A stretch of 64,000 nucleotides of DNA from Escherichia coli (lineage in GTDB: Bacteria > Pseudomonadota > Gammaproteobacteria > Enterobacterales > Enterobacteriaceae), in the NCBI RefSeq assembly GCF_003334405.1, contig NZ_QOWM01000004.1, one strand, 5' to 3'. Position numbers and translations under genes: made by a program. The notes beneath the pieces are model-generated. The model ran no database searches. It was not told where the DNA came from and was given only the letters and a program-made list of their open reading frames with translations. Below, in pieces: positions 6,434 to 19,051 of the stretch (the first letter of the stretch is position 1; each line of letters starts with the position of its first letter).

Positions 6434-6462
6434 AACGGGCGTATAACACGCCCGTTGTTTTA
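6434..6462 (+). terminator. Rho-independent terminator downstream of icd
   Basis: Hairpin AACGGGCGT-ataac-ACGCCCGTT followed by a T-run (gtttt), about 25 bp after the icd stop. Confidence 0.6.
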
Positions 6463-6512
6463 TTTATGTGGATATTATTAATAGCATATCGAGCATATTT
6501 ATATGAAGCCCA

Positions 6513-6836
6513 TTACTTGAGCCCATATGGGCATATTTTTATAATGCAACTATTATGTAAACATTTATTTGTTATTTTGCTTTCTCCTGGAGGACACTCT
6601 TGACTGCTTTTGAGTAAACTCCATAAATCCTTGTTGAATGGTGCGATGTGATAAATAGTAATAGGATATTCTTTATCCTTAAGGATAATACCAGACTTAA
6701 CCGGTGTAAATATACTGCCAGGAGGGAGAAATATAGTAGATTGATACCAGATGATCATTTTCATATTACCCCATATGGCTGAAAAAGATATACCACATGT
6801 AGGTTGAATTACCGTGTCAATTACTATCCACTTCAT
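6513..6836 (-). CDS. iraM: Anti-adaptor protein IraM (RssB inhibitor; PhoP-regulated)
   Basis: ORF track 107 aa, [12 protein letters not shown]...ICPYGLK; expected size and position between icd and ycgX; AT-rich. Confidence 0.8.
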
Positions 6837-7297
6837 TTGTTATGTCTTATCCCACGGTATTTAATATGGTTCATTAGGATGTTTATTTCTTGATTTTGCA
6901 TATGAGTATATTACCCCCCCCTCAAAAAAATAAATTAATTAAAATGATGGCTTATATAAAATAAAATTTAAAGCAAGGAATCTCAATGGATGTTAAACAA
7001 AATGAGATTTTGTGAAAGCAATAAATTATTGACTTCGTTTTAGATTTGTTTAGCTATAATGTTATACATTCAAATGACTGAACATCCTGTAATTAAAACA
7101 TAGCCTTTATGCTACTTTGTGCCAATTTGCTAAACATTATGGTTGCCTTTTTATATAACGATAATAATGAATATAAGCATGACATGAGAATAAGGTTTCA
7201 ATTTTTGAGTTATATAGGAATGATTTAACCTGTTCCTGGCTAAAATACATATAACCGGATGATGACTAAACCAAAATACATGTGCGTTAAGTATTGA

Positions 7298-7327
7298 AAC
7301 GGACGTGTGGCACGGCCGTTGTTTTTA
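7298..7327 (+). terminator. Terminator-like hairpin; second copy of the icd terminator repeat
   Basis: AACGGACGTG-tgg-CACGGCCGTT followed by GTTTTT; about 33/40 identical to 6423-6462. Confidence 0.4.
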
Positions 7328-7535
7328 TAAATATGTTAACCGTTATAAAATAACGTATCAAAAGTCAAGTGATCACATTTCAAATATCAAGTTGATAGTA
7401 TTAGTCTGGTGATTATTTATGGGTGACAATAAAAAGACAGTATTAATCATCCATAGAGATAGTCTCTGCACTTTTATTTCCATTATGCTAATGCCTTACT
7501 GAATTATGAAGCATTTCTTAAGTATCCAACTTTAG

Positions 7536-7940
7536 CTAGATTAATGGTTTATTATTTTCTACATCTTCAATATATAAAAGCGTATTATCAATGGCGTAGT
7601 AACTGCGTTTGTTATGATTAACATCAGTAACCCACCGGAAAACGCCCGCGCCTGCCAGTGTTGAACAGTATTCCCGAAATGTAGATTTTCCGCAAATATG
7701 AAGCAATGCGGCCTCTTTTATTTTAGCAGGGTTCTTGGTCGTACTAACTTTTAACAGGTTCCTGGTTCCTCTTAATAACAAAACCGTATCATCGTGAGTA
7801 ATAATTCTGATGTTATCCGTAGCCAGATAATAAATGTAATGTGCAATACGGTGATGTTTTAATTCTGAATAAAACCAGGAGAAGTTTTGCTCTTTTCTCA
7901 CTTGCTCAAACATCTTTTGAAAAACAACGACCTGATCCAT
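7536..7940 (-). CDS. ycgX: DUF1398-family protein YcgX
   Basis: ORF track 134 aa; expected size and position upstream of bluR. Confidence 0.8.
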   Translation of the reverse strand: MDQVVVFQKMFEQVRKEQNFSWFYSELKHHRIAHYIYYLATDNIRIITHDDTVLLLRGTRNLLKVSTTKNPAKIKEAALLHICGKSTFREYCSTLAGAGVFRWVTDVNHNKRSYYAIDNTLLYIEDVENNKPLI

Positions 7941-8160
7941 CAGGATAATAACCTCTTGTTAGTTGTGAGACTGCGTAGTGTGCACGATCGGTTTTACCAC
8001 TTCAATCTGGTCTGTCCTTTGGCTGTGATATGTACAGAGTGTGATAGAGGGAATATCTGAATTCTCCCGGTGAGCATTTTGCAACGGACCAGCTCCGGTA
8101 CAAACGCTGTTGTGGGTTCAGATTATAACATTCTGTCTAAGGGGCGGGATAAAGGTGAAA

Positions 8161-8892
8161 TTAGGGGGCATGAAAGATGACTTTATAACCTTGCTCACCC
8201 CAGTGTTGTAAAAGTTCGTTTTGCCTTCTCGTTGGTGCCATGCCTGTCCAGACAATCAATGTTTGCGTCGGGAACAGTTCCGGGCGCGGCGATTCAATGG
8301 GATCAGCAAGAACAGAAATGTGCCATCCTGACAATGATAAACGCCATGCTTCCAGCCACAATCGTGCTCTCTCTTCAACATTCCACGCCATCAGAATGGC
8401 TTCTTTACCGGGCTTACGGCGCATTTCGAAAAGCGAGGTTGCTGCGTATTCAATTAATGCGCCGTCAAACATACTGCTCATAATGCGGGAGGTGTTGTGA
8501 TCAAGCACGAGACGCTGGCGAACAGGAAGGTAAACATGATTAATCAATTGATCTACTGGGTACTCTCGACCCAGTGAAATAATTCTCGCGCGTAGTTTGG
8601 CAGGATTAGCCATGCGAAGAATTGACATCATCTCTTCTTGCAGGCGGCTCCAGTCATCTTCCGTATCCTGGCTGGTGGTTTCCAGTAATGCTTTAACTTT
8701 GCCTACAGGGACGCCATTACTTATCCAACGCTTGATCTCTTCGATGCGTTGTATGTCTTCTTCATCAAAGAGTCGGTGTCCGCCTTCACTGCGCTGTGGT
8801 TTTAACAAACCGTAGCGGCGTTGCCAGGCCCGGAGAGTGACAGGATTAATCCCGCAACGTTCAGCAACATCACCAATGCTGTAATAAGCCAC
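8161..8892 (-). CDS. bluR: MerR-family repressor BluR (YcgE)
   Basis: ORF track 243 aa; N-terminal MerR helix-turn-helix [47 protein letters not shown]. Confidence 0.9.
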
Positions 8893-8942
8893 AATTCCTC
8901 CTTGCGGTCACAAATCTCCGTCGCCTGTACACGACCCAATAA

Positions 8943-8978
8943 TACTTTGTACAATATACGCTAAAATTGTACAAAGTA
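8943..8978. promoter_or_regulatory. Perfect 13-bp inverted repeat TACTTTGTACAAT-N10-ATTGTACAAAGTA upstream of bluR; candidate operator
   Basis: Read directly from sequence; lies 51-86 bp upstream of the bluR start codon; each arm contains the palindrome TTGTACAA. Confidence 0.35.
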
Positions 8979-9096
8979 TAAATAAGATTTCAGCTAAATT
9001 GGATGAAACATTATTTTTAATGTGGATTAAATTTAAACGTAACGTATTCATTTTTACGATGATTTACTGAAATCATGTGAAAGAATGTGCTGAAAA

Positions 9097-17081: not shown

Positions 17082-17094
17082 TCCCGCCGTTAGC

Positions 17095-17124
17095 TAAAAA
17101 ACCGCGTCGTATTCATCGACGCGG
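17095..17124 (-). terminator. Rho-independent terminator downstream of ymgD
   Basis: Hairpin CCGCGTCG-tattcat-CGACGCGG preceded on the plus strand by A6 (a T-run on the minus strand). Confidence 0.55.
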
Positions 17125-17137
17125 TACATATGAAATA

Positions 17138-17467
17138 TTATTTTTTGCCGATAGCACGCATGGTGTCATCAATTGCCGTGATCAACAGCATTTGCGGGTC
17201 TTTAGCGCAAACCTGATTCAGTTTTTCTACCACTTTGGCGCTCAGTTCCGGAGATTGCTCAATTTTTAAATCACGGCTGGCAACGCTGGCATTACCCATT
17301 ACCGCAACAATTTCTGCAACCTGTGCGCTGTCAGTTTTTGCCATTTCGTTGGCTTCTGCGCAAGTAATATAGGTTTCTGACGGCAAACCGTTTTTAATAT
17401 TGTAGTCCTGCGCCCAGGTCATTGGTGCGAAAACAAACAGGCCCGCCAGTAAAGCAAATTTTTTCAT
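17138..17467 (-). CDS. ymgD: Periplasmic small protein YmgD
   Basis: ORF track 17138..17473; start MKKFALLAGLFVFAPMTWA (signal peptide) gives 109 aa. Confidence 0.8.
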   Translation of the reverse strand: MKKFALLAGLFVFAPMTWAQDYNIKNGLPSETYITCAEANEMAKTDSAQVAEIVAVMGNASVASRDLKIEQSPELSAKVVEKLNQVCAKDPQMLLITAIDDTMRAIGKK

Positions 17468-17476
17468 CATCATTCC

Positions 17477-17821
17477 TTATTTCATTTTACCCAGAATTGC
17501 ACCACCCGTACCGCCAATCACGGCACCTTTAATCGCCCCTTCGAGGCCATTGCCGGTCAGAACGCCAGTGACAGCACCAACGGCGGCACCCACTTTTGCA
17601 CCTTTACGCGCATTTTTACCGTCGCGGCCTTTTTCTGTTACTGCACCAACACCAGCGCCAACAGCTGCACCTTTCAGTACGCCATTAACACCATTGCCAG
17701 TAAGTAAACCAACGCCTGCGCCTAGCAATGCACCTTTCGTGGTGCGGTTCATATCCGCCATCGCTGGCGTGGAGCAGAACAATGCTGAGATAAGCCCGAA
17801 GGCAAGTATTTTTTTCTTCAA
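17477..17821 (-). CDS. ymgG: Glycine-rich small protein YmgG
   Basis: ORF track 114 aa; signal peptide plus Gly/Ala-rich repeats. Confidence 0.8.
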
Positions 17822-17822
17822 C

Positions 17823-17996
17823 TTAGATGTCCGGTATTAAGTAAGTTGCACACACAATAATTTCGTCTTCAATTAAGATCTGCTTAACTAAAGAACGCTC
17901 GCTATTATTCAGATAATTCAAAATGAGCGTGGCTGTGATGATAGGAATTATGTTTTTTACGTGAATGAGAATAATCTTAAATGAGGAATAACTCAT
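17823..17996 (-). CDS. ymgI: Small protein, probably YmgI (57 codons)
   Basis: Manual minus-strand translation from ATG (complement of 17994-17996): [57 protein letters not shown]; below the 60-aa cutoff of the ORF track; size and position fit ymgI. No clear Shine-Dalgarno. Confidence 0.45.
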
Positions 17997-18296
17997 TGAT
18001 TGACAATATTTTTATTCAAGAAGTGTCATTGACTGTTAACGCAATGTTGTAAAGGTAAGATAATCTGATTTATCAATATTATTGTGTGATTTTTATGTGA
18101 GCAGAAGATATTCATCAGCAACGATTACATTAGTCATTTTATTTTGCCGACGGCCTCATTGTCGAAAGATAAGCGTACGACAGTATTATCAGAAAAGAGT
18201 GATTTTTTATCCAACTACACTTCAGCGCACTGCGTGTAAAAATGCCTCTTTCTTATGCGGGATATCATCATTTCATCATGATGTCTTTGGTGAGCG

Positions 18297-18739
18297 GTGA
18301 ACACAATACACCTGCGCTGTCTCTTCAGGATGAATCCCCTGGTCTGGTGCCTGCGGGCTGATGTTGCAGCAGAGCTTAGGTCACTTAGACGCTACTATCA
18401 TTTATCCAATGGCATGGAATCGAAATCAGTCGATACCCGCAGTATATATCGTGAACTGGGTGCAACGCTGAGTTACAACATGCGCCTGGGGAACGGTATG
18501 GAAATGAACCCTGGCTGAAGGCGGCTGTGCGCAAAGAATTTGTCGATGATAACCGGGTGAAGGTGAATAATGACGGTAATTTCGTCAATGATTTGTCGGG
18601 CAGACGTGGAATATACCAGGCAGCTATTAAAGCCTCATTCAGCAGTACGTTTAGCGGACATCTCGGGGTGGGGTATAGCCATGGTGCCGGTGTGGAATCC
18701 CCGTGGAACGCGGTGGCTGGTGTGAACTGGTCGTTCTGA
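18297..18739 (+). pseudogene. ycgI: Autotransporter C-terminal remnant YcgI (frameshifted)
   Basis: ORFs 18297..18518 and 18527..18739 are in different frames; the second ends with the autotransporter beta-barrel terminus ...AVAGVNWSF. Confidence 0.6.
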
Positions 18740-19051
18740 CCATCAACGATTAAACTGCGCTTCGGCGCAGTTTTCGTTTACAGGATGTTGAAAGGGAAAA
18801 TTCTGGGGCAAAAAAAGCCCGCCAGTTACGGCGGGAAACCTCATCCTATGGGAGAACAATGAATAATGAAATTGCGGGGTTATCATCTCCCAGTATATCC
18901 ATACTAACAATAAGGTTATTTACTCAACCAGGCATAAACATTTTGTTTTGTGCGTGGGAACAGCCTTAAGGTGTAAAGGGGGAGGTGGAAATAGCAATGA
19001 GGAGTATCAGCAAGAATACTCGCCGCTTTACCACAACGTGGATGAGAGGGA

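Follow-up and report, generated by a model that had tools for sequence, protein, structure and literature searches.

The window analyzed here is a stretch of 64,000 nucleotides (nt) of the Escherichia coli chromosome that runs from phoP to kdsA, with the RefSeq annotation of strain A14 mapped onto it. Its left part carries phoP, purB, hflD, mnmA, nudJ, rluE and icd (5160-6410), followed by a block with the gene order iraM, ymgK, ymgL, ycgX, bluR, bluF, ycgZ, ymgA, ariR, ymgC, pdeG, ymgF, ycgH (pseudogene), ymgD, ymgG, ymgI, ymgJ and ycgI (pseudogene). To the right of the block come minE (19111-19377), minD and minC, from where the window continues to kdsA. A sequence-only reading of this DNA had singled out the block as rich in adenine and thymine (AT) and typical of horizontally acquired, H-NS-silenced DNA; all the genes that it named are present where it placed them. 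Here, the composition, anatomy and distribution of the block, the lesions in its genes and the domain status of its proteins are described. The block, which is the known variable region between icd and minCDE, is probably a patchwork of accessory modules that were gained, relocated and eroded on separate occasions beside the phage-integration hotspot at icd.

Five segments were delimited, each of which was searched in 5,426 complete E. coli genomes and counted at a coverage of at least 80%. Their coordinates, guanine and cytosine (GC) content and distribution are as follows:

6411-8160: segment A, iraM to ycgX; 34.2% GC; 3,845 genomes
8161-11468: segment B, bluR to ariR; 41.1% GC; 4,900 genomes, with about 380 without a match
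11469-14433: segment C, ymgC-pdeG-ymgF; 40.8% GC; 3,927 genomes
14434-17137: segment D, ycgH; 43.3% GC; 2,136 genomes for the ycgH allele of the window
17138-19110: segment E, ymgD to ycgI; 44.9% GC; 4,571 genomes, with some match in 5,425 of the 5,426

Because the segments differ in their distribution, the block is not one acquired unit. The 12.3-kb stretch as a whole is matched in 5,424 of the genomes, and over at least 80% of its length in 3,826. Copies of the insertion sequences IS1 or IS200 occur within or beside the block in several strains, and in one strain ymgL through ariR has been lost between two IS1 copies. No repeat pair spans the entire block, the sole direct repeats bracketing 864 bp around iraM and ymgK. 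The window annotation contains no integrase, neither an integrase nor a tRNA gene bounds the block, and phage structural or integration genes are absent from the window.

In composition, the block stands out clearly. Positions 6460-18750 have a GC content of 0.411 (41.1%), against 0.501 (50.1%) for the rest of the window; the lowest of all 12,291-bp stretches (GC 0.409) starts at 6301, while to the right of the block such stretches have values between 0.476 and 0.520. When the 16 intact block genes are compared with the 47 genes outside (Mann-Whitney), the median gene GC is 0.386 versus 0.513 (p = 1.5e-6), the GC content at third codon positions (GC3) is 0.399 versus 0.538 (p = 9e-8) and the relative codon adaptation is 0.60 versus 0.71 (p = 2.4e-6). 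The AT-rich block and its long AT-rich intergenic regions, both claimed by the sequence-only reading, are therefore borne out, and the quantitative test of GC and codon usage on which that reading had staked its claim separates the block strongly from its surroundings. Non-coding DNA makes up 23.5% of the block at 35.6% GC, versus 14.7% at 43.9% GC outside. A/T tracts of at least 6 nt reach 21.6 per kb, compared to 10-12 per kb in the flanks. The AT-richness is nonetheless uneven, with near-average GC in bluR (48.8%), ymgG (52.2%) and the 3' half of ycgH (49%). Patches below 33% GC lie at 6401-7640, 8921-9130, 10331-10650, 11111-11640, 13551-13880, 14131-14740 and 15081-15760. The left edge is sharp, straight after the icd stop codon at 6410, and the right edge is gradual, with contiguous low GC spanning 6411 to about 15,800.

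The left end of the block comprises a small cassette between two repeat copies, followed by two further genes:

6419-6461, plus strand: icd terminator hairpin region, copy 1 of a 43-nt direct repeat, with a terminator-like hairpin at 6434-6456
6513-6836, minus strand: iraM, anti-adaptor protecting RpoS from RssB/ClpXP; 34% GC (RefSeq; NCBIfam NF007393, 172.6 bits at a cutoff of 121; phrog_4407, E = 4e-51)
7093-7137, minus strand: ymgK, small protein of 14 amino acids (aa), whose translation MFSKLAQSSIKAMF equals the epitope-tag-validated protein (PMC6001520)
7283-7325, plus strand: copy 2 of the repeat, which has 84% identity to copy 1 and closes the iraM-ymgK cassette on the right
7373-7483, minus strand: ymgL, small protein of 36 aa, whose translation equals the validated YmgL (PMC6001520); Pfam PF23691 on the homologous gene
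7536-7940, minus strand: ycgX, DUF1398 protein of prophage type (RefSeq; phrog_413, E = 1.5e-41)

The repeat copies lie 864 nt apart and bracket iraM and ymgK. Their seven mismatches are all confined to the first 33 nt, with full identity over the final 10 nt (CCGTTGTTTT), a layout that would be expected if a circular element had recombined at a short core. Genomes without iraM have a single repeat copy, identical to the one on the icd side, followed directly by the sequence that comes after copy 2 in the window; such a precise, contiguous empty site occurs in 1,037 of the 5,426 genomes (19%). About 29% of the E. coli genomes lack the full iraM-ycgX segment, and the sampled examples keep the ymgL-ycgX half only. 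In another strain (L086), an IS200C copy is located at the position of the empty site.

Both iraM and ycgX have relatives in phages. Of the 46 phage records in which IraM homologues were found, most come from Stx2-converting phages, and 45 have a homologue with 60-80% (about 65%) identity. In the one record examined, Stx2a phage Stx2_EH2201 (L088), the iraM homologue (3501-3824, 65% amino-acid identity) lies directly 3' of stx2AB, and its downstream neighbour is a gene named yjhS in that record, for a 9-O-acetyl-N-acetylneuraminic acid deacetylase, which is a typical moron position. The DNA match to this phage (72.6%) is confined to the iraM reading frame, with no similarity in the flanks of the cassette. 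YcgX homologues of the YbcV type (44-45% identity) occur in 43 phage records, mostly of Escherichia phages and including Lambdavirus. Judging from the repeat anatomy and these homologues, the iraM-ymgK cassette may be what is left of a phage-derived integrative element for which the icd terminator served as attachment site, a reading that we put forward tentatively. If it is true, the stabilization of RpoS triggered by PhoPQ would be a strain-variable and horizontally supplied trait. Weak IraM-like frames (27-28% identity over at least half of the protein) were also observed in Leclercia and Siccibacter, 2-3 kb from those ariR/ycgZ-family genes that stand beside bluF (L037 at ~5642, L040 at ~6465, L054 at ~6048), which may point to a longer-standing link between IraM-family genes and the blue-light (blu) module that follows in the block.

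This module occupies the center of the AT-rich region:

8161-8892, minus strand: bluR, MerR/MlrA-like repressor of ycgZ-ymgABC (Pfam MerR, MlrA_helical and MlrA_C; function from PMC3509220)
9097-10308, minus strand: bluF, BLUF-EAL anti-repressor with a degenerate EAL domain (alignment to BlrP1, 3GFX)
10309-10621: divergent bluF/ycgZ regulatory spacer, 30% GC
10622-11829, plus strand: ycgZ-ymgA-ariR-ymgC operon, small regulators feeding into Rcs (NF040640, YcgZ family; Pfam YmgB on YcgZ and AriR; PMC3509220)

BluR represses ycgZ-ymgABC (PMC3509220). Transcription of the ycgZ operon depends on sigma-S, and MarA binds upstream of it (PMC6900184). A conserved minimal blu unit was already described in 2012, with phage-associated transfer proposed (PMC3509220). 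In a pattern-based scan for BluF with one genome per species, which yielded at least 80 loci, 41 of the loci listed hold bluR, bluF, ycgZ and ariR together. As in the window, the BLUF-EAL gene of these 41 genomes has a MerR/MlrA-like gene as its neighbor and is oriented divergently from genes of the ycgZ/ariR family. The genomes belong to Citrobacter (with BluF 73-75% identical), Enterobacter, Klebsiella, Kluyvera, Atlantibacter, Leclercia, Lelliottia, Kosakonia, Pectobacterium and a few Erwinia and Pantoea. The GC content of the module is below that of its flanks in all 41 loci, by 4.9 points on average (Wilcoxon p = 2e-8), and correlates with it (r = 0.79). The E. coli copy, at 41.1% GC, is the most AT-rich of those compared; the homologues of the bluF-ycgZ spacer have 32-44% GC in the 41 other genomes.

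In the Citrobacter freundii complex, the module is flanked by ychF and dhaKLM-treA, and in Pectobacterium it directly follows pth-ychF, while in one Erwinia genome a BluR-less BLUF-EAL paralogue (L064, 10001-17100) is found between ldcA-emtA-ymgE-treA and icd-purB. In the window, these neighbor genes lie 20-35 kb to the right, or just to the left. The shared neighbors indicate that the module has long resided in this plastic chromosomal region, though not always inserted at the same point. This speaks against its recent acquisition from a remote AT-rich donor. In most other genera, no window gene was found within 8-10 kb of the module when compared with all 63 window proteins. Taken together, the blu module is an old module of the Enterobacterales that is partly adjusted to the GC content of its host. 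As a separate observation, BluR-less BLUF-EAL paralogues lie within 5-9 kb of icd in two Erwinia genomes (L064; L069, 1-11200), and the ycgV-ychF interval, which carries an AT-rich patch in the window, is the site of the module in Citrobacter and Pectobacterium.

The sequence-only reading had counted two degenerate-looking EAL proteins in the block. This holds for BluF, which, aligned to BlrP1, has EAI for EAL, DHFG for DDFG, KIS for KVD and MGVA for EGVE; the last three substitutions imply a degenerate EAL domain, as published, and the catalytic motif set is broken. All BluR-linked BluF proteins examined show DHFG, KI(N/S) and (V/M)GVE instead of DDFG, KID and EGVE, whereas the BluR-less paralogues keep KID and six of the 11 compared keep EGVE. 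E. coli BluF adds EAI and GVA and is the most degenerate copy compared, as stated before (PMC3509220). The claim fails for the second protein, PdeG, which is encoded next to the blu module:

12161-13684, plus strand: pdeG (ycgG), CSS-motif and EAL phosphodiesterase with an intact catalytic motif set (alignment to PA3825-EAL; Pfam CSS-motif and EAL)
13816-14034, plus strand: ymgF, cell-division-associated small membrane protein (NF041587, 136.6 bits at a cutoff of 100)

Aligned to the active EAL domain of PA3825 (E = 1e-66), PdeG retains EVL, N, ExxE, DDFGTGYS, KID, EGVE and QG and, since all catalytic EAL motifs are kept, it is not degenerate. It is listed among the 13 phosphodiesterases of E. 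coli (PMC5897775). Many genomes without the full ymgC-pdeG-ymgF segment carry a form of 77% coverage with a deletion in pdeG, which fits the truncated ycgG2 allele that has been reported to be active (PMC6385356).

The right part of the block is taken up by two autotransporter loci and small envelope proteins:

14434-17081, plus strand: ycgH, autotransporter pseudogene (reference: the intact allele of 890 aa in strain ZF8-1)
17138-17996, minus strand: ymgD-ymgG-ymgI, small envelope proteins (Pfam YmgD and YmgI; weak glycine-zipper match for YmgG)
18097-18281, plus strand: ymgJ, in which a contraction from A6 to A5 at 18237 alters the C-terminus
18396-18739, plus strand: ycgI, ~345 nt from the 3' end of a YpjA/EhaD-like autotransporter gene (compared with strain JNE25-005)

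The decay of both autotransporters, proposed from the sequence alone, is confirmed. Relative to the ZF8-1 allele, codon 507 of ycgH (15952-15954) has changed from CAA to TAA, and the loss of one nucleotide near 17006 shifts the frame. The ycgI gene is a barrel remnant, the product of a clean 3,077-bp deletion in a 3,393-nt YpjA/EhaD-like gene with its junction at 18396. In strain JNE25-005, an intact YpjA/EhaD-like autotransporter of 1,130 aa occupies the place of ycgI (L085, 680-4072). Neither ycgH nor ycgI thus has the uninterrupted frame of a functional type Va autotransporter. Homologues of ycgH match the Pfam families Pertactin, AC_1 and Autotransporter, and its passenger half has 37% GC compared to 49% for the barrel half. 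A second intact ycgH allele, of the 'ECIAI39_1904 family', shares only 62% protein identity; JNE25-005 also carries an intact ycgH of this type. In the literature, nothing specific on the decay of ycgH or ycgI was found.

Genomic systematic evolution of ligands by exponential enrichment (SELEX) on K-12 placed H-NS sites in the spacers iraM/ycgX, bluR/bluF, bluF/ycgZ, ymgC/ycgG and ymgF/ycgH, and none in listed neighboring spacers such as pliG/ycgL and hlyE/umuD (PMC3946193). Four of these five spacers are overlapped by patches below 33% GC; the fifth, ymgC/ycgG, has its closest patch (11111-11640) a short way upstream, where it covers ariR-ymgC. AT-rich tracts at promoters, as expected for H-NS silencing, are therefore present. 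Promoter-like sites are mildly enriched in the block, with 48 compared to 35.9 +/- 6.6 in shuffled sequences. Regulation of IraM by H-NS is reportedly the subject of a 2012 study by Battesti. For ycgX, dependence on Hha/YdgT has been reported, and not on H-NS/StpA (PMC3686432).

How the AT-rich block came about can be explained in other ways than by a patchwork. It may have been acquired in one event as a single island from an AT-rich donor and then silenced by H-NS, an explanation that gains from the contiguous low GC and from the adjoining phage attachment gene, at which another strain carries a prophage-displaced 3' fragment of icd. Yet of the signs of a single island only the deviating composition is seen; the segments are not present in an all-or-none fashion, and their prevalence, ranging from 2,136 to 4,900 genomes, already contradicts one import. 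An integrase, tRNA gene or repeat pair around the whole block is lacking, the GC content is heterogeneous (34-45% by segment) and the blu module occurs alone in the 41 other genomes, without adjacent iraM, ycgX, pdeG or ycgH. A single island is accordingly very improbable. Alternatively, the low GC may have arisen in place and without any foreign origin, if weak selection and the GC-to-AT mutation bias of E. coli let short, weakly expressed genes and long regulatory spacers drift toward AT. The extent and composition of the spacers speak for such a drift, as does the almost universal presence of ymgD-ymgG-ymgI in E. coli; the blu module, moreover, lies about five points under host GC in every genus, as expected of a property of the module and not of a donor. 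However, the spacers alone cannot explain the low GC, because the coding GC3 is low as well (0.40 vs. 0.54), nor is gene decay the cause of the low GC of ycgH, because its intact and decayed alleles are equal in this respect (0.432 each). The phage homologues of iraM and ycgX, the empty iraM site in 19% of the genomes and the different chromosomal places of the blu module in different genera also stand against drift in place, which we regard as quite unlikely. Some points weigh against the patchwork itself. The iraM event, compared within E. coli, may be either an insertion or a precise deletion in the iraM-less strains. The density of high-affinity H-NS motifs (up to two mismatches) is 1.38 per kb in the block and 1.20 in the flanks and was dropped as a proxy because it does not separate the two, and H-NS binding of the block is indicated by SELEX in vitro, on K-12. 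Among the at least 80 BluF loci of the pattern-based scan, no Escherichia species is listed except a mislabelled Pseudescherichia, which suggests that the sister species lack the blu module; an exact-protein look-up with MinE for the contexts of sister species returned E. coli variants only. Finally, the Pectobacterium and Erwinia/Pantoea copies of the module fall inside the Enterobacteriaceae group in a neighbor-joining tree of BluF without support values, which hints at transfer between families. What stands of the proposed horizontally acquired, H-NS-silenced block is thus that parts are clearly accessory and phage-related and that H-NS sites were selected in vitro; it is not one import, and the blu module is old.

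Connected to this is the suggestion, also made by the sequence-only reading, that the block still hides unannotated small genes or small RNAs (sRNAs). YmgK and YmgL, validated by epitope tags in 2018 (PMC6001520), were indeed found after the original annotation, and the excess of promoter-like sites points in the same direction. In the ycgI-minE spacer, a highly conserved stretch (18810-18970) holds both a plus-strand open reading frame (ORF) of 36 aa (18859-18969) with GGAG upstream, open in 12 of 13 E. coli variants, and, on the minus strand, a second hairpin that resembles a terminator (18835-18818), some 220 nt past the terminator of minE; both are missing from the annotation of the records examined. 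As a weaker possibility than the phage relic, and separate from it, this spacer may hold an unannotated small gene or sRNA. Against hidden genes, the differences between strains in the 36-aa ORF mostly alter the protein, unlike what purifying selection would leave, and no Rfam family reaches threshold in the block: a search of 5000-20000 with Rfam 15 and E up to 1 returned only two sub-threshold snoRNA chance matches, and the sole match at gathering score in the entire window, C0299, lies outside the block. One further structure was found in the ymgC-pdeG spacer:

11924-11977, plus strand: near-perfect palindrome with 24-nt arms and a 25-bp stem when folded

The predicted RNA fold has -44.5 kcal/mol (z = -10.65) and starts ~95 nt after ymgC, with ~185 nt left before pdeG. 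The palindrome is single-locus in E. coli and absent from the 1-kb stretches 3' of ymgC in three Citrobacter loci; in a divergent lineage it is imperfect, without a pattern of compensatory changes, which again counts against a hidden RNA gene. It may serve as the terminator of an operon or as a site bound by a protein. None of these three leads (palindrome, minus-strand hairpin and 36-aa ORF) has strong support, and further hidden genes in the block are unlikely.

In the patchwork that we favor, five parts follow one another. The 864-bp iraM-ymgK cassette, with phage affinity, lies between two copies of the icd terminator, followed by ymgL and the prophage-type ycgX. Next comes bluR-bluF/ycgZ-ymgA-ariR, a self-contained switch for light and cold with a long history in the Enterobacterales, and then ymgC-pdeG-ymgF. 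The fourth part is the ycgH autotransporter locus, with very different alleles and inactivated in the window strain, and the fifth ymgD-ymgG-ymgI with ycgI as the stump of a second autotransporter. Low GC is concentrated in the promoter-bearing spacers and in genes for small or surface proteins, and these AT-rich patches are the places of H-NS binding in vitro. In this working model, H-NS would keep the genes of the block quiet and dedicated regulators would switch on single units. PhoP, a regulator of iraM, would do so for that gene, and BluF/BluR, sigma-S and MarA for ycgZ, where BluF, having lost catalysis, pulls the repressor BluR off the promoter. The order of events and the silencing of the block as a whole we infer.

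Elsewhere in the window, patches below 33% GC were observed at 24191-24470 and 25171-25610, on both flanks of hlyE, and at 50781-51260 in the ycgV-ychF gap. The hlyE gene is missing from several of the E. coli variants compared, and the C0299 sRNA (Rfam RF00119, 111.9 bits) is located between hlyE and umuD, at 25461-25539. At 33811, a contraction from A4 to A3 relative to strain A14 splits dadX into ORFs of 64 and 299 aa. This single-A contraction and the one at 18237 may be either real frameshifts or homopolymer sequencing errors.

The AT-rich, H-NS-bound character of the region and its proposed phage-linked origin are already published, and the region is well studied: RpoS control, blue-light and cold signalling into Rcs and biofilm formation, and cyclic di-GMP turnover are all covered in the literature. 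Added here are a quantified composition, two corrections (mosaic structure in place of one island, and a PdeG that is not degenerate), the repeat anatomy around iraM and the exact lesions of ycgH and ycgI. These additions do not open a long-standing question.

Compared with known systems, the block has the same genes, order and pseudogene states as the icd-minE region of K-12, differs by a single base (rounded 100% identity) from several E. coli chromosomes in RefSeq and, for segment E, is 99.9% identical to K-12 strain C600. K-12 has e14 at icd (PMC3509220), whereas the annotation of the window shows no e14 prophage there; the single-A contractions in ymgJ and dadX likewise set the window strain apart from K-12. 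Homologues of IraM and YcgX are found among the moron genes of lambdoid and Stx prophages, but, unlike in phages, the window carries them without structural or integration genes, and the DNA likeness to the Stx2 phage is limited to the iraM frame. The block resembles H-NS-bound xenogeneic DNA of enterobacteria in being AT-rich, accessory, rich in promoter-like sites, hit by IS elements and marked by SELEX sites in five spacers; unlike such DNA as a single import, it is a mosaic with an old central module of partly host-adjusted GC. That central module has the same layout and the same degenerate EAL domain as the BluF/BluR module of Tschowri et al. (2009, 2012), from which it does not differ in kind.

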